Source: a virus. From it: a stretch of 46,788 nt of DNA. The position numbers and the translations under genes are program-made. The DNA is taken from the IMG/VR virus record IMGVR_UViG_3300040801_003297; one strand, given 5' to 3'. This document shows positions 29,602 to 42,582 of the stretch, one piece after another; the stretch's first letter is position 1, and the number at the start of each line of letters is the position of its first letter. The notes beneath the pieces are model-generated. The model did no database searches. It had not been told where the DNA came from and saw only the letters and a list, made by a program, of their open reading frames with translations.

Positions 29602-29632
29602 ATTCTACCGTGAAAACTCACGAAGTGATACA
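29602..29632 (-). promoter_or_regulatory. Degenerate copy of the early promoter cassette
   Basis: Minus strand reads TGTATC-19 nt-TAGAAT with one TTCGTGA half-site; the spacing is 2-3 nt longer than in the good copies. Confidence 0.3.
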
Positions 29633-29638
29633 GCCGCC

Positions 29639-30085
29639 CTAGTCAAGGCGGCCTGCGCACGTCGGGCCAAGGCCCATTTGGATGCTGCTGGGAACCGTGA
29701 GCGCCCGACCACAACGACCGCAAGTTCCTTCGTGCCAGAACTGCGCCTGCGCGATGCGCTCATCGTCGTCAGCTTTCCAGCGGCCGATGTACCACTCCAA
29801 CGCCTTGAACGCAGGATGCTCGGCGTTGCCTTTGCGGCCGGCGGTGAGGTTCAAGTTGCTGCGCGGCATGAAGCCGATGTACTCGTACGAGTTCTCGTTG
29901 TCGGAGCCGACCAGCACCTTGACGAAGATGAGGCTGTCGTCATCGCTGCGCGAGAGCTTGAACGTGTAGCGCGCTGAGCGGCCGACGAGAGTCAACTTGC
30001 CCTTGCCGCCGTAGAGGTAGGCGATTGAGGCGGTGGGACCGAGCAGGCCGCGACGTTCTTCTTGGATTTCGACTTGAGCATTCAT
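29639..30085 (-). CDS. Hypothetical protein with a C-terminal CxxC...GxGPxC motif (DUF6011-like)
   Basis: Start at ATG 30085 behind the conserved RBS AAAGGACGAAACC. C-terminus is CGRCGRALTVPSSIQMGLGPTCAGRL. Confidence 0.6.
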   Translation of the reverse strand: MNAQVEIQEERRGLLGPTASIAYLYGGKGKLTLVGRSARYTFKLSRSDDDSLIFVKVLVGSDNENSYEYIGFMPRSNLNLTAGRKGNAEHPAFKALEWYIGRWKADDDERIAQAQFWHEGTCGRCGRALTVPSSIQMGLGPTCAGRLD

Positions 30086-30133
30086 GGTTTCGTCCTTTGT
30101 GGTAGTGGGGACCATTCCCCGATTCACATGAAC

Positions 30134-30176
30134 ATTCTACGGCCAATTCGTGAAGTTGTACACTGTTTTTCGCGAA
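30134..30176 (-). promoter_or_regulatory. Early promoter-operator cassette, copy A
   Basis: Minus strand: TTCGCGAAAAACAGTGTACAACTTCACGAATTGGCCGTAGAAT. It starts 1 nt after the polymerase stop codon. Confidence 0.65.
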
Positions 30177-32225
30177 TTATTTTCTGTACCTGTAAGCGAG
30201 GTAGCCTTCGGCCTTGAGAGGGAGACGCCGCGGGAGCGCGTTCGTCCAGTCAGGTTGTATCACCATGAGCTCGACGAACTTGTCCAGCGGCATGAAGTCC
30301 GGGCGTTGACTGCTGAGCACTTCGTCATGCACGTTGAGGAGAACGCGGAACATCGCTTCGTACAATGTCTCTTGGCTGAACATGAGCAAGTCACGAGCCG
30401 TTGCCTGTACGATGTTTTCGATGATCTTGCTAGGCGTCATGTTCTGACGAACCCACTGGCTCCTCGCGTTCTCAGCCATTATCGTAGTCGTGTAGATGTC
30501 TTCGCCCCACGGCGCTTTGACCCACTCGTTCTTCGGGGCGTAGTAGGCGAGGAATCTCCCTGAGTGCAGGCGGATCCACAAGTAGCCATGAGCGACCTGG
30601 AAACGCAGGCCCTTGTACTCCATCGTCTTGCCGGGCTTATCGACCGCCTTGATGATCGTGTCTTTGAGGTCGTACCACGATTGGGCTGTGACTTTATACT
30701 GCTGGCGGAATTCCTTGACATTTTGCTTCGCCTGAGCGACCGTCATCGGGATGCCTTTCTGCTGGTTCGTGGCGTGGATCGTTTTCCATCCTGCGCCGAA
30801 CATCGCGCCAAGGATCGTTGCCTTGGATTCTGTCCGAATCACGTCGGTCACCTCATCGATGCCGATGTTGAATTGCTTGGCGGCGAACGCCCGGTATTGG
30901 TCAACGCCGTTTTCGAATACGTCGAGCCCGACCGGATCCTGACAGAGCCAGACCGTCACGATGTTCTCAACACTGGAGAAGTCAGCGCAGTAGAACACCT
31001 CGCCGTCGGGCGGCACGATCATCGCCCGCAAGAGTTGCTTCGCGATGTCGAATGGCGTGCCCCCGTATATCGTCAAGGCCGCTTCGTAGTTCCCGGTCTT
31101 GATGTACTCGATGCAGTCGTCAAGGATGTTGAGACTTTTGCTGAGCGAGTCCCGCGGGAAGTTGTGCAGCTGAAGTCCTGCACCACCATTGCGCCCCGTC
31201 GTTGCTCGGTGGTAGACCATATTGTTGTGCGACTTGCCGTTCCACGCTACGTGGTTCATCGCGTCGAACTTCTTGGTCGAGACTTGGCTGAGCTCTTGCC
31301 GGATGATCAAGAACTCACGAGCATCAGGATCTATGTCCTCGTTGGTCAGGGCCGCGGCGATGTCGTCCTTGGTGTATCCCTCCAGTTGCACGCCTCGGGT
31401 CTCAAGCCATTCCATCGCCTTGTCACGCTGACCGTCGGTCTGCAAGGCTCCGCCTGTCAGTTCCCGGAGTTGTTCGGTCCGCTTTTCTCTCCACCATGAG
31501 AGCATGCTGCGAATCGCCTGAAACGCGTCGACGTCGAGGTTGATCCCTTCTTCATTCATCTTGCACGTCATGCGCCACGTGCGATCTTCGCCTGACCGGA
31601 ATTCAGGTCGGGGAAGCGCGGCAAAGATCTGGCACTCGACGATGACGTCGTCGGCGCAGTACGACGCGAACTTGCGAGCCTCATCAGGAAAGTCCGCCAT
31701 GCGGTTGCGGGTGGACTTGTCCTTCTTGGTGGGCTTGCGCGGCTTGGAGAACTTGTTGATGAGGCGCGTGCCGCTGGTGTCCTTCTGCTTCGCCAGCTTG
31801 AGCGCCTTGGCGCATTTATCCAGCGCGCCGGGGAGAGCGTGGATCCGACAAAGCGCGCCGGTGTCGCACCATGATTCGAACGGGACCTCATCCCAACCCA
31901 GGGAAGGGACGGCGACGTGATTCCAGATCGCCCTGTCGAACTCGCTGTTGAAAGCCCGAATGACCCAGCCTCTGGCAATGTAGGTGAAAAGTTCGACCGG
32001 TGGCGGATCGCCTTCAACCCACTTGTGCACCGTCTTGCCTTCGTCGGCGGTCCAGCATAGAATCAAGATCTCGGTCGATGGGTCCATGGCGTATCGCCAC
32101 GAGCCCGCTTTCTTGACGTCGATTTCCGAGTACGTCTCGAAGTCGATCGACAGCATCTTCCCCGGGATCAACCGAAGCTTAGAGTCAGGGACCTCAAAGA
32201 GGCCCCTCCTAGTTGCTGATGTCAT
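30177..32225 (-). CDS. DNA polymerase, family A, with an N-terminal 3'-5' exonuclease domain
   Basis: 682 aa. Exo motif MLSIDFETYS. Pol motif A YCADFSSVENIV, motif B ESKATILGAMFGAG, motif C LNVHDEV. Confidence 0.9.
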   Translation of the reverse strand: MTSATRRGLFEVPDSKLRLIPGKMLSIDFETYSEIDVKKAGSWRYAMDPSTEILILCWTADEGKTVHKWVEGDPPPVELFTYIARGWVIRAFNSEFDRAIWNHVAVPSLGWDEVPFESWCDTGALCRIHALPGALDKCAKALKLAKQKDTSGTRLINKFSKPRKPTKKDKSTRNRMADFPDEARKFASYCADDVIVECQIFAALPRPEFRSGEDRTWRMTCKMNEEGINLDVDAFQAIRSMLSWWREKRTEQLRELTGGALQTDGQRDKAMEWLETRGVQLEGYTKDDIAAALTNEDIDPDAREFLIIRQELSQVSTKKFDAMNHVAWNGKSHNNMVYHRATTGRNGGAGLQLHNFPRDSLSKSLNILDDCIEYIKTGNYEAALTIYGGTPFDIAKQLLRAMIVPPDGEVFYCADFSSVENIVTVWLCQDPVGLDVFENGVDQYRAFAAKQFNIGIDEVTDVIRTESKATILGAMFGAGWKTIHATNQQKGIPMTVAQAKQNVKEFRQQYKVTAQSWYDLKDTIIKAVDKPGKTMEYKGLRFQVAHGYLWIRLHSGRFLAYYAPKNEWVKAPWGEDIYTTTIMAENARSQWVRQNMTPSKIIENIVQATARDLLMFSQETLYEAMFRVLLNVHDEVLSSQRPDFMPLDKFVELMVIQPDWTNALPRRLPLKAEGYLAYRYRK

Positions 32226-32237
32226 AGCGATCCTTGT

Positions 32238-32453
32238 TTAGGCTTCGATGATTTCGACGCTTCCCATTTGGCAGGCGTCGGCGAATTCTCGGAGCTGGCG
32301 GTTTTGGCCGTAGAACCTGACGTAGGGGTTGCCGCCTGCAGGTCCGACCGGTTGAAGAGTGAGCATGCGAACCGAGTGCTTGTCGAGCGTTTCGAGCAAC
32401 TGGCAAAAGTCGGTGTTGTACGCGATGTCGATATCGAAGTAGAAGTCAAACAT
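32238..32453 (-). CDS. Hypothetical 71-aa protein
   Basis: ATG 32453 behind the conserved RBS AAAGGACGAAACT (MFDFYFDIDIAYN...); the gene ends 13 nt before the polymerase start. Confidence 0.6.
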   Translation of the reverse strand: MFDFYFDIDIAYNTDFCQLLETLDKHSVRMLTLQPVGPAGGNPYVRFYGQNRQLREFADACQMGSVEIIEA

Positions 32454-32505
32454 AGTTTCGTCCTTTGAGGTTAGAGGCGAAGGCGACGGGCCTTCACCTA
32501 ACTTC

Positions 32506-32548
32506 ATTCTATCGAGAATTCACGAGCCTGTACACTGTTTTTCGCGAA
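32506..32548 (-). promoter_or_regulatory. Early promoter-operator cassette, copy B
   Basis: Minus strand: TTCGCGAAAAACAGTGTACAGGCTCGTGAATTCTCGATAGAAT. It overlaps the 3' end of ORF 32520..32777. Confidence 0.6.
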
Positions 32549-32777
32549 CTTGCTCGTTGCCCCAGACGGCGACATAGATGAGAAGTCCGCCGTCCTCCTG
32601 CTCGTAGACGAGGAACTCGCCGGTGTTTTCGATGAGTGCGAAGTCACACCCGTTGCCCAAATTCTCTTGGCAGACGAGCGCACGTGGAGGATTGCTCGGG
32701 TCAATGCCCAGGGAGAGGATGTCTGACGTGTAGCGATAGGGCAAGTCATACGTGATCTGATCTTTGCTTATGAGCAT
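32520..32777 (-). CDS. Hypothetical 85-aa protein
   Basis: ATG with RBS CAGGAGG. The last 10 codons are encoded by the promoter cassette sequence. Confidence 0.55.
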   Translation of the reverse strand: MLISKDQITYDLPYRYTSDILSLGIDPSNPPRALVCQENLGNGCDFALIENTGEFLVYEQEDGGLLIYVAVWGNEQVREKQCTGS

Positions 32778-32796
32778 GGCGCCTCCTGCTGGCGTG

Positions 32797-32816
32797 AAAA
32801 AAGGGGCCGAAGCCCC
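32797..32816 (-). terminator. Rho-independent terminator with a UUCG tetraloop
   Basis: Minus strand: ggggc-ttcg-gcccc followed by tttttt. Confidence 0.75.
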
Positions 32817-32822
32817 GATCCC

Positions 32823-33110
32823 TTAGTGTGTGTAGAACCCATCGAGTCCGAACATTACGTACCCGCCGTTTCCAGCCGAGTTGACGATGTGGTTGATGTC
32901 AAATGATACCACAAACTTGTCGACTGAGGGGATGTTGACGACGAGATAGCGAGCGTCGCGAGCGTTGATGTTCCAGTATTCGACCAGCTTCGCTGCCGCT
33001 TTTTCCGCTGCCTTCTCGGCGGCCTTTTCGCTCTTGTACATTTTGCAAGGCGTCTTGGTTTCGGTCAGTCGGGCTTCAACTCGTGCGATGAGGTTTTTAA
33101 CTGTGTTCAT
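32823..33110 (-). CDS. Hypothetical 95-aa protein
   Basis: ATG 33110 behind the conserved RBS AAAGGACGAAATC (MNTVKNLIARVEARL...), with an internal EKAAEKAAEKAAAK repeat. Confidence 0.6.
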   Translation of the reverse strand: MNTVKNLIARVEARLTETKTPCKMYKSEKAAEKAAEKAAAKLVEYWNINARDARYLVVNIPSVDKFVVSFDINHIVNSAGNGGYVMFGLDGFYTH

Positions 33111-33165
33111 GATTTCGTCCTTTCTGGTTTCTGCTTTTGGGGACCATCCCCGTTTGCATGAGACC

Positions 33166-33208
33166 ATTCTACTGCTACTTCGTGAAGTCGTACACTGTTT
33201 TTCACGAA
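33166..33208 (-). promoter_or_regulatory. Early promoter-operator cassette, copy C
   Basis: Minus strand: TTCGTGAAAAACAGTGTACGACTTCACGAAGTAGCAGTAGAAT. The upstream half-site contains the stop codon of ORF 33202..33423. Confidence 0.65.
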
Positions 33209-33423
33209 AAAGGGTAATTATTTTCGCGGTGCCAGCGATTCGCGTATCGGAATAAGCCCTTGCGGGTGATCGGGCACTTGCCTCGGCGGAAATTGCGGCA
33301 CATGGTGGAGAACTGGTGCGTGTCGAAGTAGAGCACTATCCACTCAGGTCGGTCGGGCGGAGACCCGTCGTCTTCGATGACGCATACCCAGTAGGGCTGG
33401 TAGCGGCGAAAGCGGTATTTCAT
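33202..33423 (-). CDS. Hypothetical 73-aa basic, Cys-containing protein
   Basis: ATG 33423 with RBS AAAGGACGAAGTC (MKYRFRRYQPYWVCVIEDD...). Confidence 0.55.
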   Translation of the reverse strand: MKYRFRRYQPYWVCVIEDDGSPPDRPEWIVLYFDTHQFSTMCRNFRRGKCPITRKGLFRYANRWHRENNYPFS

Positions 33424-33446
33424 GACTTCGTCCTTTCGGTTGAGGA

Positions 33447-33462
33447 GGGGCCCGAAGGCCCC
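33447..33462 (-). other. Intercistronic GC hairpin (UUCG-type loop) without a U-run
   Basis: Minus strand: ggggcc-ttcg-ggcccc, placed between the stop of 33469.. and the RBS of 33423. Same context as the hairpin at 42238..42251. Confidence 0.6.
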
Positions 33463-33468
33463 GGTTGA

Positions 33469-33738
33469 TTATGCCACTCGCTTGCCGTTGAAGAACATGC
33501 CGATGGGAGAGTGGACCAGAAGGCCGCAGTCTTCCATGATTTCGAGCGGCGCCTTGCGGTCATTTTCCAGCTTGGCGAAGTATTCCTCGGGGGTGAAGTA
33601 CTTGGTCAGGGCCCGCTTGAACATCCCCATCTTGATGGGCGCGCCGCGATATTTGAACCGAGCGACGAATCGACCTTTGTAAGTGAGGTAGCCGCCTGAG
33701 AAGTTGAAATCGTCTTTAGTCCATGTGCTCATTTTCAT
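33469..33738 (-). CDS. Hypothetical ~88-aa protein
   Basis: Two candidate ATGs (33738 and 33732); RBS spacing favours 33732 (MSTWTKDDFNFSGGYLTYKGRF...). Confidence 0.6.
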   Translation of the reverse strand: MKMSTWTKDDFNFSGGYLTYKGRFVARFKYRGAPIKMGMFKRALTKYFTPEEYFAKLENDRKAPLEIMEDCGLLVHSPIGMFFNGKRVA

Positions 33739-33786
33739 CGTCCTTTCTGGTTTTGCCTTGGGGCCGTTCCCCGTTGGCATGAGACC

Positions 33787-33828
33787 ATTCTACCGCTTCT
33801 CGCGAAGTAGTACACTGTTTTTCGTGAA
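33787..33828 (-). promoter_or_regulatory. Early promoter-operator cassette, copy D
   Basis: Minus strand: TTCACGAAAAACAGTGTACTACTTCGCGAGAAGCGGTAGAAT. Confidence 0.65.
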
Positions 33829-33846
33829 AAAGTTGAAAAAGAATTA

Positions 33847-33860
33847 GGGGCCGAAGCCCC
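33847..33860 (-). terminator. UUCG-tetraloop hairpin followed by a U-rich tract (terminator)
   Basis: Minus strand: gggggcttcggcccc, then taattctttttcaacttttt. Confidence 0.6.
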
Positions 33861-33868
33861 CGAGCGCC

Positions 33869-34285
33869 TCAGGCCTGAGCCATCCAGCGCTTTGCGGCCC
33901 GACGGTTCGGCGCGCCCATCGCCATCGCCTGCTGGATCCAACGCTCCTGCTCTTCGGCCTCGCGTTGCTTGGCTCGCTCTTCGTACTCGAGCTCCTCGAC
34001 GATGCGGGCGCACCACTTGTCGTATTCCTCGATCAGCTCGTTGGTGGTCATCAGGCTGATGTCCAACCGGTAGCGCACGCCCATCACCTCTTTGGAGGCG
34101 TCGCTGATGCCGCCGTAGATCCCGTTGCGGAACTCGCTCATCTCCCAGTACATGGGCTCGTTCAGGAGGAGCGCCTTCTCGGCTTCGGCTTCCTCAACGG
34201 TGGCGTAAGCGCCTTGGCCTACGAGGCGATCCGTCTCGTCGCACTTCATCCATACGTTGTGTTCGGTCTGAGTGATTGTGATCAT
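33869..34285 (-). CDS. Hypothetical acidic 138-aa protein
   Basis: ATG 34285 with the conserved RBS block; Glu-rich helical C-terminus. Confidence 0.6.
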   Translation of the reverse strand: MITITQTEHNVWMKCDETDRLVGQGAYATVEEAEAEKALLLNEPMYWEMSEFRNGIYGGISDASKEVMGVRYRLDISLMTTNELIEEYDKWCARIVEELEYEERAKQREAEEQERWIQQAMAMGAPNRRAAKRWMAQA

Positions 34286-34314
34286 GATTTCGTCCTTTCT
34301 GGTTGGGTTAGGGA

Positions 34315-34503
34315 TTAAGCGATTTCAGTGCAGAGGGTAGATACTTGTCGCTGGCTGACTTGGCCCAAGGTGATCAGACGCTCGACGCCAGTGTTCCAGT
34401 TGTGAAGAGCGACGATGCGCTTTTCGTTGCTGACCAGAATCGTCTGGATGAAGGTGTATTGGTCAGCGATTTTTTCGACTTGCTTGATAGTGGTGATTTT
34501 CAT
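34315..34503 (-). CDS. Hypothetical 62-aa protein
   Basis: ATG 34503 behind the conserved leader and RBS. Confidence 0.55.
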   Translation of the reverse strand: MKITTIKQVEKIADQYTFIQTILVSNEKRIVALHNWNTGVERLITLGQVSQRQVSTLCTEIA

Positions 34504-34550
34504 GATTTCGTCCTTTCCGGTTGGGGGTCATTCCCCGTTTGCATGTGATC

Positions 34551-34592
34551 ATTCTACTGCTTCTCGCGAAGTAGTACACTGTTTTTCACGAA
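34551..34592 (-). promoter_or_regulatory. Early promoter-operator cassette, copy E
   Basis: Minus strand: TTCGTGAAAAACAGTGTACTACTTCGCGAGAAGCAGTAGAAT. Confidence 0.65.
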
Positions 34593-34599
34593 AAAGATG

Positions 34600-34623
34600 A
34601 AAAAAAAGGAGCCCGAAGGCTCC
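34600..34623 (-). terminator. Rho-independent terminator (UUCG loop)
   Basis: Minus strand: ggagcc-ttcg-ggctcc followed by tttttttt. Confidence 0.8.
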
Positions 34624-34647
34624 AAGGGGCTGGCAGGCCCTGGGTTG

Positions 34648-35535
34648 TCAGGCGGCGAGTGCCAGTGTCTTCTTAAAGGTCGGTGAGACCAGCGTCTCCC
34701 GGACTCGCTCCTCGCGGCGGAACTTTGCAGCCGCTGCGTTCTCGTGCGACTTCTTATCCACGTCCCAGTGAGTGGAGAAGTGCGTCAGGGTATTGTACAA
34801 CGCCCAACCGGTCGTGCCCATCGTTGTTTTGTGAGTGACCCATGACTCGAAGAGAGCCTTCATCGCCCGAGGCATGTCGTCCTTGTTGCTGGGCAGACCG
34901 AGCCGCTTCGCTTCCGTGTTACGGCTGGCGTGAGCCAACGCGTCGTACGCCTGTGAGTCGGTTACCTTGGCGACGCGCAGCTTTTCGAACCACTCACGTG
35001 ATTGCTCGAATGAGTCCAGCACTCGGGAGATGTGCTTGCCCGCCAGCTTCACATCGAGGCTAGGAACGTGCTTCGACTTGAAGTAGCTGATGTTGTCCCC
35101 CATGACTTGCCCGTTAGAGCAGACGAAGCGGTAACCGCCGGCCTGAACGCTGAACGCCGTTGACCCGTCATACGAGTTCTTAGCGATGATGCGCAGCGCG
35201 GTGGGGTCGTTCTCACCGATTTGGATCTGGTGAGCGGGGAGGATCAGCTGGGCGAATGTGCGTGCGCCTTCGTGGCTGAACTCGGTTTCGACCTTGGCGC
35301 CGTCGAGGTTCAAATCAGAGCGACCGAGGATGTCGACGAATGAAGTGAACACCTCCTCGTTGGTCACGGTCTTGTACTTCTCACCAACCACTGCGATGGG
35401 CTGGCCCGTCTCGGCGGCGACGATTACCTTCTTGCCGGGGACCTGAATGCCGCCCATGGTCGTGAGGCGTTCTTCGCGTACCTTGAAGAAAGAAGACGAG
35501 AGGGATTCGGTGATTGCGTTGAGTGCAGCTGTCAT
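34648..35535 (-). CDS. DUF932-like protein (phage/plasmid family, function unknown)
   Basis: Start at ATG 35535 (MTAALNAITES...). AKNSYDGSTAFSVQAGGYRFVCSNGQVMGD matches the DUF932 core as I remember it. Confidence 0.7.
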   Translation of the reverse strand: MTAALNAITESLSSSFFKVREERLTTMGGIQVPGKKVIVAAETGQPIAVVGEKYKTVTNEEVFTSFVDILGRSDLNLDGAKVETEFSHEGARTFAQLILPAHQIQIGENDPTALRIIAKNSYDGSTAFSVQAGGYRFVCSNGQVMGDNISYFKSKHVPSLDVKLAGKHISRVLDSFEQSREWFEKLRVAKVTDSQAYDALAHASRNTEAKRLGLPSNKDDMPRAMKALFESWVTHKTTMGTTGWALYNTLTHFSTHWDVDKKSHENAAAAKFRREERVRETLVSPTFKKTLALAA

Positions 35536-35592
35536 GTCATAGTCCTTTTGGTTTGGTTCGGATCCGGAGACCATTCCCCGATTCACGAGCCC

Positions 35593-35633
35593 ATACTACT
35601 ATGACTTCGTGAGTTAGTACACTACTTTGCGAA
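35593..35633 (-). promoter_or_regulatory. Early promoter-operator cassette, copy F (divergent; -10 is TAGTAT)
   Basis: Minus strand: TTCGCAAAGTAGTGTACTAACTCACGAAGTCATAGTAGTAT. It overlaps the 3' end of the deaminase gene. Confidence 0.5.
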
Positions 35634-36060
35634 CCCACTCGCGAGCATTTTCGCCACTTGCCAACCATAGCTCTCGCGCGTGGATGTGAGTGTACTCGTC
35701 AGCGTAGACGATCCTCTTGGCTGAGGTGTTCATCAGCAGCTTAACGCAGCCGACGCAAGGCGAGGTCGTGCAGTAGACGGACCAGATCTGGTGGACGTCG
35801 CTACACTGGAGAAGCGCGTTGGCCTCGGCATGTATTGCCTCGCATAATTCTAGGCCGGTGCCTGAGGGCAAATGGGCGCCCGGACAGGCCCTGTCTATAC
35901 AGTGCGTCTGGCCTGCCGCGACGCCGTTGTACCCGGTAGCGAGCACGTGGAGCCGCTCGTTAATCAGGATGCACCCTACTTCCCGCCTCCGGCACGTAGC
36001 CCGCGTAGCAACCTCTCTAGCCAGCCTGAGGAAGTACGTATCGACATCTGGCCTGCTCAT
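35614..36060 (-). CDS. dCMP deaminase (cytidine/deoxycytidylate deaminase zinc-binding fold)
   Basis: VGCILINE...LATGYNG, HAEANAL and PCVGCVKLL (H-A-E and PCxxC zinc motifs). ATG at 36060 is preferred over GTG at 36069. Confidence 0.85.
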   Translation of the reverse strand: MSRPDVDTYFLRLAREVATRATCRRREVGCILINERLHVLATGYNGVAAGQTHCIDRACPGAHLPSGTGLELCEAIHAEANALLQCSDVHQIWSVYCTTSPCVGCVKLLMNTSAKRIVYADEYTHIHARELWLASGENAREWVRKVVY

Positions 36061-36125
36061 GCCAGCCACCGGAAAAAGACGACCAGAGCCGCCGTGAGGG
36101 CTATCGTGGCGAGTAGTCCTAGCAT
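36057..36125 (-). CDS. Possible 22-aa transmembrane micro-ORF
   Basis: Own translation: MLGLLATIALTAALVVFFRWLA. Its stop TGA overlaps the deaminase ATG (ATGA). No clear RBS. Confidence 0.2.
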   Translation of the reverse strand: MLGLLATIALTAALVVFFRWLA

Positions 36126-36138
36126 CGGCTCGCTGTGC

Positions 36139-36632: not shown

Positions 36633-36823
36633 AGCGAAATGTCCATGATCGCGTCACGAAGTTCTTCGGTGCGCTCGCCTTTGTTGAACCTGTCGCGACA
36701 CGGCGTGATTGCGAAAGCCATAGCGAACAGTCCTGCCGACCCGGTTTCGGCGTAAGCTTTTTCGCAAGCTTCTAAGCGCTCTTCGACTGCTACCCAGTCT
36801 ATGTTGTGGATGTCGTTTTTCAT
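36629..36823 (-). CDS. Hypothetical 64-aa protein
   Basis: ATG 36823 (MKNDIHNIDW...) forms an ATGA overlap with the SEC-C protein stop. Confidence 0.5.
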   Translation of the reverse strand: MKNDIHNIDWVAVEERLEACEKAYAETGSAGLFAMAFAITPCRDRFNKGERTEELRDAIMDISL

Positions 36824-37044
36824 CAGGCATACCCGCTCCAGCAGCATCGTTTGAACTTTTTACCGGACCCACAGACGCAGGGCTTGTTGCGCATGCTGTT
36901 CTTGCGTCGCTTCGCCCCCATCGGCTGCAGTTCTTCGAACTCGCGTTCGCTTAAGGGGAGCAGTCTCCGGCCCTCGCTTTCGGCGCGGCGCGCAGCTGCG
37001 GCTAATCCTACGCCTTGATGAATCGTTCCTCGTTTTACGTCCAT
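36823..37044 (-). CDS. Small SEC-C motif protein
   Basis: C-terminus KPCVCGSGKKFKRCCW is the SEC-C metal-binding motif; RBS is AGGAG. Confidence 0.6.
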   Translation of the reverse strand: MDVKRGTIHQGVGLAAAARRAESEGRRLLPLSEREFEELQPMGAKRRKNSMRNKPCVCGSGKKFKRCCWSGYA

Positions 37045-37053
37045 AGCGATCTC

Positions 37054-37305
37054 CTAGTTAATTTCATGCGCCGGCACGTCCGGCATCCCTTGACTCCAAT
37101 GCTCAAGCAAAGCCTTCAGAGCGTCAGCGACCGCCTTGCGCTCGCAGTTCGATATATAGCTGCATCGGCTGTCGTCAGTCGTCTGGAAAACGACTAGCGC
37201 GAACCCAATGTCGTCGCGGCCTGATACTTTTTGCAGATCGCGGCTTATCCGCTTCGCGAGTGTTTGAAGCTGCTTCGACACAGCTCGGTCTGTCTGGTTA
37301 GTCAT
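37054..37305 (-). CDS. Hypothetical 83-aa protein
   Basis: ATG-initiated ORF in an operon context; no motif. Confidence 0.5.
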   Translation of the reverse strand: MTNQTDRAVSKQLQTLAKRISRDLQKVSGRDDIGFALVVFQTTDDSRCSYISNCERKAVADALKALLEHWSQGMPDVPAHEIN

Positions 37306-37306
37306 G

Positions 37307-37480
37307 CTATTTCGCCCTCGGCCAGTAGTCTACCAGAATGTGACCGCACTCTTCGCATTGTTCGGTGCTGACGGTCTCGATGATTCCCATGTGACCGCAC
37401 TCCGGGCATTGCTGGTCCTTATGCGTGACGAGGATTCTGCCCGTGTCGATCGTGCCTGTGTCGTTCTGTCGGTACGTCAT
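37307..37480 (-). CDS. 57-aa zinc-ribbon protein
   Basis: MTYRQNDTGTIDTGRILVTHKDQQCPECGHMGIIETVSTEQCEECGHILVDYWPRAK has CPxC...CxxC. ATGA overlap with the hydroxymethylase stop. The rest of ORF-track entry 37307..38044 is an out-of-frame artefact. Confidence 0.55.
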   Translation of the reverse strand: MTYRQNDTGTIDTGRILVTHKDQQCPECGHMGIIETVSTEQCEECGHILVDYWPRAK

Positions 37481-38274
37481 CCTCTGCGCTCCTGCATCCA
37501 CGCCGCGAAAGGGTACTCTTCGTGACAGTAGTTCGTATCGCCTGTAGTAAGAAACGCGAACTCGACCGGATCGCGTGCTCGCGGCATCGGGATTTCGGTG
37601 TAGCCGTCGACGCCGTCTTGGACCAGCATGCTCAACATCTCGAAGTGCCGCTCGTAGACGTGGAACGAATCGACCTTGTGGGTGTAGGTGCCCATCGTCA
37701 AATCGGGATACGCCCTCTTGCGTAGCGCAGCCAGCACCGCCTCTTGGAGAAGTGAGAAACAGAAGACGTCGTTGGTCATGCCGAAGATCGCATCGTTGCT
37801 TCGCATCGAGACAGACATTTTCAGCGTGCCATTTCGGATCCTGAAGTTGAGACCGTAGGTGCACACCACGTCGGGATTGTCCTCGCGCAAGTGACCGCGG
37901 TTGAGCAGAACCATGCACGCCCGCCGGGAATCGGCATCGCGCATCAGCTCTTCGACGACCCATGCGAACTGACGCTGGCCGAAGATGTATTGCCCGTAGT
38001 TGGAGTTGAATCCCAGGTCCCTGGGATCTTTGATCTTCGCCCACATGGTGGCGTGCTTTTCGATGCTGGTGTCGTAGCGATCACCTCGCAGATACCAGAG
38101 GAACTCTTCGATGCAGTACGCAAGGTTGAGACCGCGAGCACGAAACGAAGTAAGACGCTCGTAGGGTGCCAGCGTGAATTGATAGTCCTCGAGCTCGAGT
38201 ATCGACTGACCTCTGGGTGAGCACGGTCGACCATGTTCAAGCAGATCTTCGTAAACTCTTAAAAAGTTCGACAT
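37477..38274 (-). CDS. ThyA-fold deoxynucleotide hydroxymethylase, T4 gp42-like (predicted dCMP hydroxymethylase)
   Basis: 265 aa. FNSNYGQYIF, ADSRRACMVLLN, VVCTYGLNFRIRNGTLKMSVSMRSNDAIFGMTNDVFCFSLL and FHVYERHF align without gaps to E. coli ThyA [9 protein letters not shown]...[20 protein letters not shown]. Catalytic Cys is kept, His147 becomes Thr, and Asn177 becomes Asp, as in T4 gp42 (MCT... RSNDVVFGFRND). Confidence 0.8.
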   Translation of the reverse strand: MSNFLRVYEDLLEHGRPCSPRGQSILELEDYQFTLAPYERLTSFRARGLNLAYCIEEFLWYLRGDRYDTSIEKHATMWAKIKDPRDLGFNSNYGQYIFGQRQFAWVVEELMRDADSRRACMVLLNRGHLREDNPDVVCTYGLNFRIRNGTLKMSVSMRSNDAIFGMTNDVFCFSLLQEAVLAALRKRAYPDLTMGTYTHKVDSFHVYERHFEMLSMLVQDGVDGYTEIPMPRARDPVEFAFLTTGDTNYCHEEYPFAAWMQERRG

Positions 38275-38767
38275 TGAGCAAGTCCTCTTCGGAATCCTGG
38301 GTGTAATCGTACCGCACGACGTTCGCGTTTCGGTACAGCGTAGAATCGAATGTCGCGTCGTAAAGAATGCGTAGTCTCTCCAAGCTGGCTTCGATGTCAG
38401 CGACGTATTCCGGTGTGTCGTACACCTCGGGCTCGTGCTTGACTTTGTCTAGATCGCCGACGCGACAATAGATGATAAGCGGCGCCACTTCGTCGAGGAG
38501 CTTGCGCTGCGCCTCGTAGTATTCCACATCCGATACGAGTTGCCGGCCGAACACTAGACCGTAGATCGGCTCGCTGATTTGCGTGACGCGATCCTGAATG
38601 CAAGGGAGCTGCGCGCGTTTGAAGCACTCGTCCATGTCGGCACGAACGCCTCCGGGCGTGCCGGCGGATCGACCTATCGCGAAGATCGCCAGCTTAGGGA
38701 ATATGGTTGCAAGCCGAATCGACAATGAGCTCTTGCCCATGCCGTCTGGTCCTTCAAGTATGATCAT
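38237..38767 (-). CDS. P-loop dNMP kinase, thymidylate-kinase-like
   Basis: Start at the internal ATG 38767 (MIILEGPDGMGKSS Walker A, then a DRV..ISEPIYG Tmk-like DR motif). 14-nt overlap with the upstream gene and 38-nt overlap with the hydroxymethylase start. Confidence 0.7.
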   Translation of the reverse strand: MIILEGPDGMGKSSLSIRLATIFPKLAIFAIGRSAGTPGGVRADMDECFKRAQLPCIQDRVTQISEPIYGLVFGRQLVSDVEYYEAQRKLLDEVAPLIIYCRVGDLDKVKHEPEVYDTPEYVADIEASLERLRILYDATFDSTLYRNANVVRYDYTQDSEEDLLNVELFKSLRRSA

Positions 38768-39131
38768 TGGGTTGCGTCCAGGGAGAGAGGTCCGGGGATT
38801 CCCAGCCCTCAGGTTTACGGAGATCGAGCTCGAACCCACCGCGCTTGCCATTGGGCCCGAGCTCTTTCTTCATGTTGGCAAGGACGACTTCCCGGAACCC
38901 ATCCATCGGCAGGCCTTGGCGTTCAAGCGTACCGATGACAAACACCAGCAGATCCAACAGAGCGTCGTACTCGTCTTCGAGGTCGTCGGCGAGTAGATAC
39001 TCAGTCGCCTCTTCGATGAAGCACGCAAAGCGGAATCGCTTCTCGTCGAGTTCGAGATTGCGCGGCCCGCCTTCGTACTGGATACCGAAGAGACGATGCT
39101 GGTCCTTGACGAGGTTCAGTAAGTCGTCCAT
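38754..39131 (-). CDS. All-alpha NTP pyrophosphohydrolase (MazG/dimeric-dUTPase/dCTPase-like)
   Basis: 125 aa. FIEEATEYLLADDLEDEYDALLDLLVFVIGT (EExxE...D..D metal-binding helices) and VVLANMKKELGPNGKRGG...KPEGWESPDL are typical of phage MazG-like enzymes. Confidence 0.7.
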   Translation of the reverse strand: MDDLLNLVKDQHRLFGIQYEGGPRNLELDEKRFRFACFIEEATEYLLADDLEDEYDALLDLLVFVIGTLERQGLPMDGFREVVLANMKKELGPNGKRGGFELDLRKPEGWESPDLSPWTQPNDHT

Positions 39132-39135
39132 GGGG

Positions 39136-39447
39136 TTACGCCGCTTTCTTCTTGGGCGCGACGTAGGCGTTGAGCAGTCCGGCGTCGTACGCGTCGGCGA
39201 TCATGTTCTGAGCCGTCGCAGCCGAGTCGGCCACTTTCACGATCGTGGTCAGGAACAGACTGATCTGCCCTTTACGCACGAACCCCTCGCCTGATGCCAG
39301 GGCGATTACCTTGGCGGCATGCACGACGTGCTCGTCAGGAGTCGACGGCGCTTTGCCACCGCCCTTGACAGTGAGCTTCGCCGGGATCTTGCCTTCATCT
39401 GCAGTCGCTGCGTCGGCTGCCTTGGGTGCTGCTTTCTTCTTAGCCAT
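39136..39447 (-). CDS. Hypothetical 103-aa protein with Lys/Ala-rich termini (possible DNA-binding or histone-like)
   Basis: Starts MAKKKAAPKAADAATADEGK and ends YVAPKKKAA; RBS AAGGAG. Confidence 0.55.
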   Translation of the reverse strand: MAKKKAAPKAADAATADEGKIPAKLTVKGGGKAPSTPDEHVVHAAKVIALASGEGFVRKGQISLFLTTIVKVADSAATAQNMIADAYDAGLLNAYVAPKKKAA

Positions 39448-39495
39448 GAGAATCTCCTTGAGTCAGTGGCTTCTTACAATTACCCGGGATGGGTA

Positions 39496-40074
39496 CTACT
39501 TACGACGGCCCGACGGGCGCGCCTTCTTTCGACCTGCCGACTTGACGTCAGCGAAGTCATCTTCCGCGGCAGGCGCAGTGGCACCTAGAGGCTCGTCGTC
39601 TCTTACCTTCATGACGTTGTCGAGCGAGAAGGTCACACCTTTGCCGCCTGTCTTGTGCTCCCACGCGTAGGGCCGAATCGAACACCGGTACCACGCGCCG
39701 CTGTACAGTTCCTCTTGCTGGTCCATCTCATCGATGGCGTCGAGGTCGGCGTCGACGATACCCGGCTTGCGCTTGTTGCCGAGGTTGACGCAGACCATAC
39801 CGTCGAACTCGCCTGCCTCGCTAATGTCCTCGCCATCGCGCAGCGGACTGCGAAGCTTGCGAGGCACTTCACCGAATTTCTCCTCGGCGACCTCGTCTAC
39901 CCAGTCTTCGAGCAGTTCGATGTACTCGCCTTGCTCAGGGTCTTCGGGGTCGAGGACCATCAACAGCGAGTACTTAAGGTCGGCATCTTCGGAGATGCGG
40001 TCGGGTTTAGCCAAGTGCACGAAGCTGGCTCGGAACTCCGGCGTGTGCCGGCGTGGATCTTTGGGGTCTGACAT
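39496..40074 (-). CDS. ssDNA-binding protein, DUF2815 / T7 gp2.5-like
   Basis: 192 aa. FRASFVHLAKP...LKYSLLMVL...SPLRDGEDI...NKRKPGIVD...LYSGAWYRCSIRPYAWEHKTGGKGVTFSLDNVMKV matches the DUF2815 pattern. Confidence 0.75.
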   Translation of the reverse strand: MSDPKDPRRHTPEFRASFVHLAKPDRISEDADLKYSLLMVLDPEDPEQGEYIELLEDWVDEVAEEKFGEVPRKLRSPLRDGEDISEAGEFDGMVCVNLGNKRKPGIVDADLDAIDEMDQQEELYSGAWYRCSIRPYAWEHKTGGKGVTFSLDNVMKVRDDEPLGATAPAAEDDFADVKSAGRKKARPSGRRK

Positions 40075-40134
40075 TTGCAGTCTCCTGAACGTAAAGAAGG
40101 ACCCGTCGTGATGACCGGGCCCGGGGTTGTGGCC

Positions 40135-40572
40135 TTATGCGCGGCCGGCTTTTTGCACGCTGTAGAGGCGGGTGGCGCCGTCTCGCGTTTGCTTGAGTAC
40201 CTCGTCACTGGCAAGGCCGAACTTCTCACCGCGGTTGCGGATCAAGTAGAGGTCGCCCGTGATGTTCTTGTAGCTGGTGCCGAAGTGCTCGACCAAGAAG
40301 TTGACTGACGCCGGCCGTGATCGGATGATCTCGACAACCTGGGCGGTGCGGCCCGGCGTTTTCTTGGACTTAGGCTTCGCAGCAGGAGCCTCTTCTTCAG
40401 CCTGTACTTCCTCGGCTTCGGGGGCTTCGTCCGGCAGCTCGGCGATGAGCTTTTCCAGTCGGGCGATGCCTTTGGCTTTGCTGTCAAACTTCTTAATCGA
40501 CTTGCCGGTCAGCTCTTGGTAGAGGTCAACGAGGCCAGCCATGGTGAGAAGATTCAGGTCAATTGTTTTCAT
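40135..40572 (-). CDS. Hypothetical 145-aa protein (acidic linker; C-terminus possibly winged-helix); first gene of the long nucleotide-metabolism operon
   Basis: ATG 40572 behind the conserved RBS, driven by two tandem promoter cassettes. Confidence 0.55.
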   Translation of the reverse strand: MKTIDLNLLTMAGLVDLYQELTGKSIKKFDSKAKGIARLEKLIAELPDEAPEAEEVQAEEEAPAAKPKSKKTPGRTAQVVEIIRSRPASVNFLVEHFGTSYKNITGDLYLIRNRGEKFGLASDEVLKQTRDGATRLYSVQKAGRA

Positions 40573-40623
40573 GATTTCGTCCTTTCTTTTTCGGTTAGTG
40601 GAGGCCTTCGCCTCACCTGTTTA

Positions 40624-40663
40624 ATTGTACTGCTCATCGTGAGCTTGTACACTTTTTTGTGAT
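40624..40663 (-). promoter_or_regulatory. Early promoter-operator cassette, copy G1 (-10 is TACAAT)
   Basis: Minus strand: ATCACAAAAAAGTGTACAAGCTCACGATGAGCAGTACAAT. Confidence 0.5.
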
Positions 40664-40689
40664 TGGGTGGTTGCCCCGATCACATAAAC

Positions 40690-40732
40690 ATTCTACTGCT
40701 ACTTCGTGAAAGTGTACACTGTTTTTCGTGAA
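40690..40732 (-). promoter_or_regulatory. Early promoter-operator cassette, copy G2
   Basis: Minus strand: TTCACGAAAAACAGTGTACACTTTCACGAAGTAGCAGTAGAAT, about 65 bp upstream of G1. Confidence 0.65.
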
Positions 40733-40750
40733 ATAGTTGAAAAAAGTTGA

Positions 40751-40766
40751 GGGGCCCGGAGGCCCC
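40751..40766 (-). terminator. GC hairpin followed by a U-rich tract (terminator after the DUF2786 gene)
   Basis: Minus strand: ggggcc-tccg-ggcccc, then tcaacttttttcaac. Confidence 0.6.
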
Positions 40767-40772
40767 GTGGGA

Positions 40773-41495
40773 TCATGCCAGCCGGCGAGTATTCGCTGAG
40801 CTGTTGCCTACGCCTTGGCGGATGCGAACGTTGCTGCCGTCCTGTGTTCCGCGCTGGCGGTGGTGGTTGGCTCGAGCTCGGCGAGTGCTGTTCTGGTACT
40901 TGACGTTGAACTTCTTCGCCACGATGTCACGCTTGACGATCATGAGCTCAGTGCCGGTGGACACCTCGCGCTCGGCCTCTGCCTTCTCGCGGATCATTTC
41001 GCGGATCACTTGGAGGATGCCGGCCGCCAGCCCGTTGCGGTAGTCGTTGGTGTCGGCCCGCGTCAAGTGAGGGTTGTCGCGCTTGTACTTCGCTGAGAGC
41101 AACTCGACCTGAGAGCAGATGTAGTCGAAGACGTAGCCGCACACCTCAGGATCGCTGTCGACGCCCAGGAACTCGGCGACCTTCTCGATCGCGTTGGGAC
41201 CCGTGCCGTAGCGGCTCGTGTAGCGAACGTGGCAGTCGTGGAGTTCAGCGACCGGGACCAGCAGCATCGTGTACCAAGCCGGGATCCGACCGTAGCCGCG
41301 CTCGGCCTGTTGGGTGGTGGTGTCGTCCTGCGTGACGCCCTCTTTAAGACGTACCGCCGAGCTATCCAAGTTGTACTTCTGCATCAGCTTGCTGGCACGC
41401 GTCGCTGCGATGGCGGCTTCATGCGGGCTCGAGGAGTCTTCGCTCATCGCCAGCAGCTTGCGGATGCGGTCAAGAATCTTTGCTTTGTTTTCCAT
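40773..41495 (-). CDS. DUF2786-like protein
   Basis: Start at ATG 41495. MENKAKILDRIRKLLAMSEDSSSPHEAAIAATRASKLMQKYNLD is the DUF2786 N-terminal signature. Confidence 0.7.
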   Translation of the reverse strand: MENKAKILDRIRKLLAMSEDSSSPHEAAIAATRASKLMQKYNLDSSAVRLKEGVTQDDTTTQQAERGYGRIPAWYTMLLVPVAELHDCHVRYTSRYGTGPNAIEKVAEFLGVDSDPEVCGYVFDYICSQVELLSAKYKRDNPHLTRADTNDYRNGLAAGILQVIREMIREKAEAEREVSTGTELMIVKRDIVAKKFNVKYQNSTRRARANHHRQRGTQDGSNVRIRQGVGNSSANTRRLA

Positions 41496-41549
41496 GATTT
41501 CGTCCTTTCTGGTTCCTGCACCGAGGCCCTTCCTCGATTGCATGAACTT

Positions 41550-41591
41550 ATTCTACTGCGATCTCACGAGTTGTACACTGTTTTTCGTGAT
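41550..41591 (-). promoter_or_regulatory. Early promoter-operator cassette, copy H
   Basis: Minus strand: TCACGAAAAACAGTGTACAACTCGTGAGATCGCAGTAGAAT. Confidence 0.65.
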
Positions 41592-41592
41592 T

Positions 41593-42078
41593 TTATTTTC
41601 CGACCGCGACGGCGGGCCACTCCATCTCGCCGAGGCCCAACGCGTCCAGCAGCATCTCGGGGTCTCGATGGTAATTGGTGAGAATGTCCCATGTGCCGAA
41701 GTGACTGGTCAGCGCCACGTGCTTGCTCGGGGAGAAGACGAAGCCCATGTACTGCGCCTCTTCACTCGCGCCCCACGTCGGGTCGTGGATCTTATTACAG
41801 CGGACGTCTAGGACCCATGCGTGCTCGACGACGATGGGTACGTCTCTGCCCGCGTAGGCCAGTCCTTCGACGTAGTGGAAGTCGGGAGACCGCATCGCCA
41901 GCTCGCCTGCGTTGACGTAGCACTCTTTCATAGGGCCTCGTTCGACGTCACACTTGACGCCTTTCCACACTCTTCCCTGAGCCGCCAGAATCGCTCTCAT
42001 TGAGCGCGAGTAGTCTATGCCTAGCTTTGCCCATTGGTCCAGCTCGTGTTGGACGTGAGCCCTTATGCCTTCTTGCAT
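41593..42078 (-). CDS. Hypothetical 161-aa protein
   Basis: ATG 42078 (MQEGIRAHVQHELDQW...) is preferred over GTG 42108; it overlaps the upstream 49-aa ORF by 16 nt. Confidence 0.55.
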   Translation of the reverse strand: MQEGIRAHVQHELDQWAKLGIDYSRSMRAILAAQGRVWKGVKCDVERGPMKECYVNAGELAMRSPDFHYVEGLAYAGRDVPIVVEHAWVLDVRCNKIHDPTWGASEEAQYMGFVFSPSKHVALTSHFGTWDILTNYHRDPEMLLDALGLGEMEWPAVAVGK

Positions 42079-42212
42079 GACGTCATCCTCACATACTCTT
42101 CGACGCACCGGTTGACTCGCTCGTTCTGCTCTCGGGCGTAGATCGCCTGAATGGCGCGTCGCTGCTCTTCTCTGCGCTTCTCAAGAAGTCGCTCTCGTTC
42201 TAAGTCTTTCAT
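42063..42212 (-). CDS. Hypothetical 49-aa charged helical protein
   Basis: ATG 42212 behind RBS AAAGGACGAGCACG (MKDLERERLLEKRREEQRRAIQ...). Confidence 0.45.
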   Translation of the reverse strand: MKDLERERLLEKRREEQRRAIQAIYAREQNERVNRCVEEYVRMTSCKKA

Positions 42213-42237
42213 CGTGCTCGTCCTTTCGGTTGGTGGT

Positions 42238-42251
42238 GGGGCCGAAGCCCC
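42238..42251 (-). other. Intercistronic UUCG-tetraloop hairpin without a U-run
   Basis: Minus strand: ggggc-ttcg-gcccc, placed between the stop at 42259 and the RBS of 42212. Confidence 0.6.
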
Positions 42252-42258
42252 GGGAGGA

Positions 42259-42489
42259 TTAGTACTCGATGTCGCCGTCGATGATGGTCGCCAGCCAGAG
42301 GTCATTCTCGGTCAGCTCTTTGGCGTGGGCCCGGGCCAGTTCTTCTGTTTCCCAGGAGCTCACCAGTCCCCAGTCAGCGCCCGCCATGATGTGGGCTTGG
42401 CTGTTGACACAGCTGTAAACTCGAAAGCGCATGACGCGTGAGTGAGGGTTGCTGCGAATGTTCTTCTCAGTAGTGCGAATGCTTTCCAT
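42259..42489 (-). CDS. Hypothetical 76-aa protein
   Basis: ATG 42489 (MESIRTTEKNIRSN...) has the best spacing to the conserved RBS. Confidence 0.55.
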   Translation of the reverse strand: MESIRTTEKNIRSNPHSRVMRFRVYSCVNSQAHIMAGADWGLVSSWETEELARAHAKELTENDLWLATIIDGDIEY

Positions 42490-42541
42490 GATCATCGTCC
42501 TTTCTGGTTTTGCTTGGGGCCTTTCCCCGTTGCATGTGATC

Positions 42542-42582
42542 ATTCTACTGCTTTTCACGAAGTTGTACACTAATTTCGCGAA
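42542..42582 (-). promoter_or_regulatory. Early promoter-operator cassette, copy I
   Basis: Minus strand: TTCGCGAAATTAGTGTACAACTTCGTGAAAAGCAGTAGAAT. It begins right after the stop of ORF 42583..42759. Confidence 0.65.

Follow-up and report, generated by a model that had tools for sequence, protein, structure and literature searches.

In T4-type myoviruses, elements known as promoter early stem-loops (PeSLs) join an AT-rich tract that holds a stop codon to an early promoter of the sigma-70-like type and to stem-loops; they lie in hyperplastic regions, and recombination occurs between copies (Arbiol et al., 2010, PMC2839356; Comeau et al., 2014, PMC4122927). Five subclasses have been described, in which the stem-loop, serving as terminator or attenuator, lies between, overlaps or is upstream of the promoter boxes, or sits just downstream of them but before the start (PMC2839356). 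The T4 early promoters have an upstream-promoter (UP) element, a -35, a TGn motif and a -10, with extra consensus besides (PMC2988021). At the level of the transcript, RppH of Bacillus subtilis needs at least two unpaired 5' nucleotides, and protective 5' stem-loops of the ompA and papA type in Escherichia coli are represented in the references of the same review (PMC3997798). Here we describe a repeated element in IMG/VR virus record IMGVR_UViG_3300040801_003297, a siphovirus sequence of 46,788 nucleotides that we call, over its whole length, the window. With somewhat more confidence than doubt, we read each copy as a composite gene-junction cassette used by a sigma-70-type RNA polymerase of the host, with a PeSL-like promoter and leader. 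The cassette probably both drives and shuffles small accessory genes.

An earlier note on this DNA had described 10 good copies and one degenerate copy of a promoter-operator unit of ~43 bp. All of them are found on the minus strand at the coordinates it gave, and the AGTGTAC string that it called invariant is so in 10/10 good copies; the full repeat, however, is larger (~120 bp), with 11 copies in the early and replication arm. A chance origin of the repeat is excluded. Searching with AAAACAGTGTAC and allowing at most one mismatch gave eight matches, each of them within a cassette and on the minus strand, compared to 0.08 expected and none in 100 shuffles. The pattern GTGTAC-N4-TCRYGA has 10 matches (9 in cassettes) vs. 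0.79 expected, and TTCRCGAA has 19 strand-hits vs. 6.2. A generic sigma-70 scan recovers 7 of the 10 copies as TGTACA-16/17-TAGAAT/TACAAT.

Read 5' to 3' on the sense strand, approximately half of the copies open with an intrinsic-terminator-like hairpin (GGGGCC-UUCG-GGCCCC plus a T-run). Next comes the AT-rich tract GAAAATAA or a T-run, which frequently contains the stop codon of the upstream gene, and then a first TCRYGA box, the A-tract AAAAAC and the -35 element AGTGTACA. The spacer of 16–17 bp holds a second TCRYGA box and leads to the -10 element TAGAAT, and a pyrimidine-purine step falls exactly 7 nt after the -10 in 9/10 copies. A stem-loop follows the -10 region, and after it a standard translation-initiation region, AACCAGAAAGGACGAAATC-ATG (also written AAAACCAGAAAGGACGAAATC-ATG); conservation runs ~60 nt into the predicted transcript. 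We take the upstream AT tract with AAAAAC to resemble an UP element, on our own comparison with the E. coli consensus.

This anatomy agrees with the earlier proposal of sigma-70-type promoters at gene boundaries, each predicted from a TAGAAT -10 and a TGTACA-like -35 located 16–17 bp upstream. Overlap of the cassette with the upstream stop codon was confirmed for genes 32520-32777, 33202-33423 and 35614-36069, and the stops of 30177-32225 (PolA) and 41593-42078 abut a cassette. Two further details needed correction. A conserved leader and ribosome-binding site (RBS) had been reported after every copy; the RBS AAAGGACGA follows 8 of 10, but the copy at 40690 runs into a second promoter (40624) and the one at 35593 has AAAAGGACTATGAC. 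The string of mono- to tri-cistronic units was likewise only partly borne out, as the unit after 40624 is an operon of ~5 kb with about 13 genes. The degenerate eleventh copy has neither the upstream box nor the A-tract.

Related genomes, all uncultivated contigs, were reached via homologues of PolA and of a winged-helix protein encoded at 40135-40572 in the window. The PolA identity to the window, 64–78% in the cassette carriers for which it is known, is 78% for its closest relative, L135, followed by L138 (69%), L136 and L139 (both 68%) and L120 (66%); L202 and L203 were reached through the winged-helix protein. The earlier note had expected the repeats to be kept at gene boundaries in relatives, and they are: homologous cassettes lie at gene junctions, on the sense strand, in L135 (11 copies), L136 (6–8), L120 (9–10), L138, L139, L202 and L203. 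Features common across genomes are the A-tract, G-T-(G/T)-T-A-C-A at the -35, TAG(A/T)AT at the -10, the position of the hairpin, and an ACC triplet near the Shine-Dalgarno sequence. This triplet lies 5–8 nt upstream of the Shine-Dalgarno sequence (AACCAGAAAGGA; e.g., window 33113-33131), is kept in all genomes (L135, L136, L120), and could pair with the GG of the hairpin loop or of the Shine-Dalgarno sequence over 2–3 bp only. The boxes are less widespread. Box 1 occurs in the window and in both L135 and L136, while spacer box 2 typifies just the window and L135, with isolated examples in L136 and L138; L203 has neither. In the places of the boxes, L120 carries GTGAAA and GGTAA motifs, plus TGn, and its cassettes are near-consensus (TTTACA-16-TGGTAGAAT).

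Farther away, L140 (PolA 49%) has a GTGTACA...TAGAAT promoter after PolA with no hairpin and no cassette system, and L137 (PolA 44%) has no repeats. A 14-mer scan of IMG/VR returned just single chance matches, and the longer cassette pattern and a primase scan of the same database returned none. Scanning metagenomes with TCRYGAAAAACAGTGTAC gave 58 single chance matches, 0 of them with a -10, and a leader pattern search found the L120 contig only.

The -35 region is more invariant than typical hexamers and in the window matches TTGACA poorly, as might be expected of factor-dependent middle-class promoters, in which AACAGTGTAC and/or the spacer box would be read, instead of by sigma region 4, by a phage activator that redirects the host RNA polymerase, in the way of the T4 MotA box with AsiA. 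In that case the genuinely early genes would be those of the operon without cassettes that starts near 3385-3412; this first operon is ~7.5 kb long, lies ahead of the first cassette and has a different promoter context. However, the homologous element of L120 and L138 is a good TTTACA in canonical spacing, accompanied by TGn in L120, and GTGTACA-N-TAGAAT also occurs in the more distant L140, outside any cassette system. The window ORFs (open reading frames) scanned include no MotA/AsiA-like or sigma-like protein or sigma factor, and the large ones no RNA polymerase. We consider middle-class promoters very unlikely.

Beyond what had been described earlier, every leader contains a 5' hairpin, and terminators stand directly upstream of several cassettes. 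The leader hairpin is an RNA feature. All of the leaders tested fold (34/34; mean z of -3.2 vs. shuffles), the sense strand being more stable than the antisense (-13.2 vs. -10.8 kcal/mol), with 28/304 pairs G-U. The 37 leaders tabulated have 33 different hairpin sequences, with many base-pair types per stem level; stems vary between genomes yet stay paired through compensatory changes, and the hairpin position and A-N-G-G loop are common to them. Loops contain A/U-G-G in 31/37 leaders (AAGG, UGG, AUGG, AUGGA and similar). A covariance model of the leader recovers every cassette, has all of its matches on the sense strand within the early arm of genomes with cassettes, and added copies that had been overlooked before (L120 5130, L136 4297, and L136 14001). 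In the covariance-model alignment, the covariation score was 0.261, compared to 0.150 in shuffles (0/500). With respect to the predicted start, the hairpin begins at -1 to +2 (6–8 nt after the -10) in 9/11 window copies. Searching the cassettes against Rfam 15 gave no match, and only two sub-threshold terminator-like matches were found, at 28671-28751.

Several other roles for this hairpin were considered and rejected. It has no U-tract, and A-rich sequence follows it, unlike an intrinsic terminator. For a leaderless ORF beginning at the conserved CATG, the reading frames do not agree, and an early stop (ATG-TGA or ATG-AGG-TGA) cuts it short in two copies of the window and in those of L120. 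The AUG of the loop is not a plausible start codon either, being absent from AAGG/AACGG loops and in inconsistent frames elsewhere. An N4-type hairpin promoter, which works with a virion RNA polymerase, was discarded as well, since the large ORFs of the phage include no RNA polymerase and the hairpin is downstream of the -10, not upstream of the start.

Stems change from genome to genome but the loop motif does not, and this motif is unlike the UUCG loops of the terminators, which could mean that the hairpin is mainly a regulatory protein-binding site: either a dual CsrA/RsmA-type site, formed by the A-N-G-G(A) loop and the AAGGA Shine-Dalgarno sequence 12–24 nt downstream, or a boxB-like antitermination hairpin. 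The L120 loops, AUGGA, correspond to ANGGA, the Shine-Dalgarno sequence AAGGA is present, and the spacing between the two is compatible with bridging by a CsrA dimer. Against this, in the window and L135 most loops read (A)UGGU or AAGGC, i.e., GGU or GGC and not GGA; CsrA is only putative in the host; neither a boxA-like element nor an N-like protein was identified; and Rfam has no match. A mainly protein-binding role seems to us clearly unlikely.

Cassettes are more alike within a genome than between genomes at corresponding positions. The mean identity over 90 nt is 0.68–0.80 within a genome vs. 0.60–0.73 for positional orthologues, and 29/34 cassettes have their best match in their own genome. 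This within-genome likeness is concerted evolution or duplicative spread. A core block is syntenic in the genomes compared (winged-helix gene, SSB, MazG-like, thymidylate-synthase-like, dCMP deaminase, DUF932 and PolA), and the small ORFs that cassettes flank are mostly genome-specific, without homologues among the other genomes. A single unit bounded by cassettes has changed place. The 138-aa gene of the window and the cassette after it (34164-33735), located between DUF932 and PolA, are homologous to L135 13020-13418 (66.7% nucleotide and 46% amino acid identity), which is downstream of PolA and DUF6011, i.e., on the opposite side of PolA. The resemblance to T4-type phages noted earlier holds up in these three respects: variable ORFans are flanked, the copies evolve in concert within a genome, and a unit has moved. 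At the place where the window has its cassette-flanked small ORFs, between DUF932 and PolA, L136 (9363-10004) and L138 (6333-7166) carry an AcrVA2-like gene (anti-CRISPR family).

Some of these features would also be expected of plain extended "uber-promoters," in which the extra bases just optimize binding of the host polymerase (UP element, spacer, discriminator), as in the early promoters of T4, T5 or LUZ24, with no dedicated regulator and no role in recombination, and in which the likeness of copies reflects selection for strength plus recent duplication. Sets of 10–58 conserved sigma-70-like phage promoters are commonplace (PMC10914365), and T4 early promoters show consensus beyond the canonical elements (PMC2988021). 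The near-consensus L120 cassettes point the same way, as does GAAAATAATTTCACGAAAAACAG, which by our own comparison fits the UP-element consensus. What such promoters leave unexplained is the transcribed hairpin, whose loop is conserved and whose stems covary, the standardized RBS common to accessory genes only, the restriction to junctions of variable ORFans together with the relocated unit, and the distinct, lineage-specific spacer motifs of each genome. We regard plain uber-promoters as possible but rather doubtful.

The earlier note had also proposed that octamers 22 bp apart bracket the -35 element as operators. Each cassette does have a palindromic pair, but an exact TTCRCGAA or its complement TTCGTGAA occupies just 11/20 slots; the conserved core is TCRYGA (18/20 slots; center GC, AC or GT), and the octamer starts are 21–22 bp apart. 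On the operator reading, TTCRYGAA boxes centered near -45.5 and -23.5 would bind a dimeric regulator, such as the 40135-40572 protein, that shuts off or gates all cassette promoters together. The same palindromic core occurs twice per cassette, for which we estimate the chance recurrence of an 8-mer within ~30 positions at ~0.002–0.03. Within the core, changes are limited to transitions at the central two positions, with each orientation (TCACGA, TCGTGA) represented, as a symmetric site would lead one to expect, and the boxes are not enriched elsewhere in the genome. Working against operators, the spacer box is missing from most L136, L120 and L203 cassettes, which have similar promoters and still have the winged-helix gene. 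The upstream box lies inside the tract that, by our comparison with the consensus, is UP-element-like, and its distance to the -35 varies (5–8 nt in L135, 5–7 nt in the window), which shifts the helical phasing of the two boxes. Homogenization of whole cassettes can also keep non-functional bases.

As for a candidate binder, the gene first behind the tandem promoters, which is the first of the core replication operon in every cassette-bearing relative, encodes a protein modeled as an ArsR/SmtB/MarR-like winged helix. The model of the 40135-40572 protein has a mean predicted local distance difference test (pLDDT) score of 75, rising to 84–91 in the C-terminal domain. In a Foldseek search, the top 50 matches are winged-helix repressors of the ArsR/SmtB/MarR type and other winged-helix DNA-binding domains (best E of 1.5e-3, probability 1.0), and by these structural comparisons all of the top matches are dimeric repressors. 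The protein has no Pfam or PHROG match, and Pfam detected no helix-turn-helix in any early ORF. The earlier suggestion of this protein as a candidate binder gains from the modeled fold, but the gene is also present in genomes that do not have the spacer box. The boxes do co-occur with the recognition helix GDLYLIRNRGE of the window and L135 type, a co-occurrence confounded by phylogeny. The DUF2786/DUF7168 protein (40773-41495) was judged a doubtful box binder; its distribution (limited to the window, L135 and L202) correlates with the boxes, but there is no indication that it binds DNA. A MerR-type spacer operator was set aside because the spacer is 16–17 bp and not 19–20 bp. Taken as a whole, operator function for the boxes is rather unlikely in our judgment. 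We take the TCRYGA boxes to be a lineage-specific addition, possibly a phage-repressor operator for early shut-off, that is not needed for promoter function in the clade.

To return to the reading of the repeats as composite junction cassettes, host RNA polymerase would fire at each of them early in infection, which would be ordinary because of the T4 "uber-promoter" precedent (PMC2988021) and the known sets of conserved sigma-70-like promoters (PMC10914365); the cassettes would then act as strong constitutive early promoters. Transcription would start ~7 nt after the -10, at the conserved pyrimidine-purine step, and the transcript would begin inside or beside a stable hairpin. Because of the analogy to ompA-type 5' stem-loops and the need of RppH for unpaired 5' nucleotides, this hairpin should protect the message, shielding its triphosphate end from 5'-end-dependent decay of the RppH, ribonuclease E or ribonuclease J type. 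A protein probably contacts the conserved A-N-G-G loop. Every accessory gene would have an identical translation context from the uniform leader and RBS, and the ~120 bp shared at every junction would be a substrate for homologous recombination, by which accessory genes could be inserted, deleted and moved ready to express.

Several points weigh against this reading. Promoter activity and start sites are predicted from the consensus alone, and the -35 elements of the window match TTGACA at only 4/6 positions (3/6 in three copies), without TGn. The hairpin of the 34551 copy starts ~9 nt from the predicted start. When one fixed register is imposed, only 62% of alignment cells pair and a -1 slide does equally well, because loops of 3–6 nt shift the register; for the same reason, RNAalifold predicted no structure on the MAFFT leader alignment. 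We therefore gave more weight to per-sequence folding and also used the covariance-model alignment. The concerted evolution of the copies could instead reflect co-evolution with a trans factor. Relocation is represented by a single unit with 67% nucleotide identity, and no relative above 80% PolA identity was available to show clean cassette-bounded insertions or deletions.

A more elaborate version, which we would call a long shot, is a portable two-level timing switch, in which the TCRYGA boxes are operators of the 40135-40572 protein and the A-N-G-G loop and AAGGA form a dual site for an RNA-binding regulator (a CsrA/RsmA-like protein of the host or a phage protein). If true, a gene recombined between two cassettes would inherit transcriptional shut-off, messenger RNA protection and translational control. 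The coordinates of the cassettes and associated features are listed in the table below.

Positions of the cassettes, associated hairpins and the candidate regulator gene in the window. Promoter ranges, hairpin ranges and the genes served are given under remarks; promoters are predicted.
Feature	Position	Strand	Remarks
Cassette 1	42490..42582	-	Boxes and promoter 42542-42582; hairpin 42511-42534; RBS; ATG 42489; ORFs of 76, 49 and 161 aa
Cassette 2	41496..41591	-	Promoter 41550-41591; hairpin 41517-41542; serves DUF2786/DUF7168 gene 40773-41495
Cassette 3	40664..40732	-	Promoter 40690-40732; hairpin 40658-40684; terminator 40751-40766 before; cassette 4 directly after (tandem promoters)
Cassette 4	40573..40663	-	Promoter 40624-40663; -10 TACAAT; hairpin 40598-40617; ~5-kb conserved operon, winged-helix gene first
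Cassette 5	35536..35633	-	Promoter 35593-35633; -10 TAGTAT; hairpin 35559-35587; overlaps dCMP deaminase stop; serves DUF932 gene
Cassette 6	34504..34592	-	Promoter 34551-34592; hairpin 34523-34536; terminator 34608-34623 before; ORFs of 62 and 138 aa
Cassette 7	33733..33828	-	Promoter 33787-33828; hairpin 33754-33779; terminator 33846-33861 before; ORFs of 87 and 73 aa
Cassette 8	33111..33208	-	Promoter 33166-33208; hairpin 33132-33158; stop of 33202-33423 inside upstream box; 95-aa ORF, then terminator 32803-32816
Cassette 9	32454..32548	-	Promoter 32506-32548; hairpin 32475-32499, atypical CCGUC loop; stop of 32520-32777 inside spacer box; 71-aa ORF and DNA polymerase A
Cassette 10	30086..30176	-	Promoter 30134-30176; hairpin 30098-30128; abuts PolA stop; serves DUF6011 gene 29639-30085
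Degenerate cassette 11	29545..29632	-	TGTATC, CTTCGTGAG spacer box, TAGAAT; hairpin 29573-29593 (GUGGU loop), then UUUU; covariance model E 0.13
145-aa protein	40135..40572	-	Modeled as N-terminal helix pair, disordered linker and C-terminal winged helix-turn-helix; sole candidate cassette-binding regulator found
Intrinsic-terminator-like hairpin	40751..40766	-	GGGGCC-TCCG-GGCCCC and T-rich tail; directly upstream of cassette 3
Equivalent UUCG-loop terminator hairpins	34608-34623, 33846-33861, 32803-32816	-	
Intercistronic "hairpin + AACCGAAAGGACGA" module	33424..33468	-	UUCG loop, without promoter; second copy 42213-42258

The hairpins fall into two classes. Terminator and intercistronic hairpins, including the one at 28677-28702, mostly have UUCG tetraloops (UCCG at 40751-40766), and the promoter-proximal leader hairpins have A-N-G-G loops.

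The window was called complete because its 117-bp ends are identical (bases 1-117 and 46672-46788); it represents a circularly assembled siphovirus genome of 46,671 bp, either circularly closed or terminally redundant, with a carbamoyltransferase gene spanning the junction. Genes for terminase, portal, major capsid, major tail and tape-measure proteins are on the plus strand (5580-28074), and the replication and accessory arm is on the minus strand, ending at 28677-28702. The window has no tRNA gene, and neither a repressor module nor an integrase module was found in the phage. The best PolA identity to cultured phages is ~33%, to Chi-like siphoviruses, and megablast and blastn gave no nucleotide match to cultured phages. 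A PolA profile search of genome contigs returned just relatives of 24–30% identity in metagenome-assembled genomes, and therefore no host clue.

The regions 35614-36069, 37477-38274, 38237-38740, 38754-39131 and 45798-46760 (wrapping to ~755) encode a set of enzymes: dCMP deaminase, a thymidylate-synthase-like protein, a pyrophosphohydrolase of the MazG-like type and a Nol-like carbamoyltransferase. This set is kept together in all relatives and looks like a pyrimidine (thymidine) DNA hypermodification module. The cassette-free first operon encodes a small ORF, primase-helicase, carbamoyltransferase, SNF2 helicase and exonuclease; upstream of it, at ~3385-3412 on the minus strand, is a cassette-like promoter (gaTTTACA-N15/16-TATATAg, then cAAGGACGA) without boxes or hairpin. 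Five copies of the 18-bp GTGCAAGTAAGCTACTTT (arms AAGTA/TACTT), in both orientations, are located at 3440-3890, in the ~500-bp non-coding region between the divergent arms, and include an inverted repeat of ~50 bp (3556-3606 vs. 3770-3825). These repeats could be a control region or replication origin, and another possible target of the winged-helix protein. Within the SNF2 helicase gene (44166-44482, minus strand), tandem repeats of ~57 nt give the helicase a low-complexity tail that is alternately acidic and basic; similar repeats are present in L136 and L120.

If the cassette reading is correct, plug-and-play junction cassettes would not be peculiar to T4-type myoviruses but would be found again in a siphovirus lineage unrelated to them, pointing to a general route for lytic phages to acquire and reshuffle small accessory genes that are ready to express. 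The cassette would also be a compact natural expression unit, with an UP-like tract, a promoter, a putative 5' protective hairpin and a standard RBS. Its conserved loop and palindromic boxes are clear, cheap targets in a search for new phage or host regulators, and are the parts most worth experiment. The cassette reading is well supported as a prediction, and it opens no long-standing question.

The promoters resemble the T4 early "uber" promoters and the sets of LUZ24, PAK_P3 and 14-1 (PMC10914365) in being many, near-identical and host-type, A/T-rich upstream and conserved past the hexamers. In contrast to those sets, the window copies have no TGn and a weaker -35, are conserved ~60 nt into the transcript, and stand at nearly every accessory junction. 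As with the ompA and papA 5' stabilizers, a hairpin is found within ~0–4 nt of the predicted 5' end of the message, but here it would head ~10 transcripts of one genome and its loop motif is conserved; both the 5' end, which is predicted, and the stabilizing effect are putative. Temperate actinophages have multi-copy operators, such as the conserved inverted repeats by the early promoters of phiC31 and the stoperators of L5, where one phage repressor binds many sites. The likeness to these is that a single short site, palindromic or asymmetric, recurs at many early promoters or junctions; unlike them, this phage has no repressor or integrase module that we found, sister genomes keep the promoters where the boxes are absent, and binding to the boxes is putative.

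The closest comparison is with PeSLs. Both are short repeated composites in which an AT-rich tract with the upstream stop is joined to an early promoter of the sigma-70-like type and to G/C-rich stem-loops, and both cluster at small non-conserved ORFs, with differences in gene content or position between relatives coinciding with cassettes. Terminator hairpins are often adjacent as well; such hairpins precede four window cassettes and many in L135, and the invariant hairpin sits in the leader, without a U-tract. PeSLs belong to T4-type myoviruses and the present element to an unrelated siphovirus of ~46.7 kb, and it is therefore at most a PeSL analogue outside the original taxon. The constant stem-loop differs from theirs in being downstream of the predicted start, with no U-tract and an A-N-G-G loop, a position outside the five PeSL subclasses. 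The cassette also reaches through a standardized RBS to the ATG, and palindromic TCRYGA boxes flank its -35. Recombination and mini-circles are known for PeSLs; here recombination between cassettes is a prediction. The cassette system is a variant of what T4-type phages already show, not a new kind of system.

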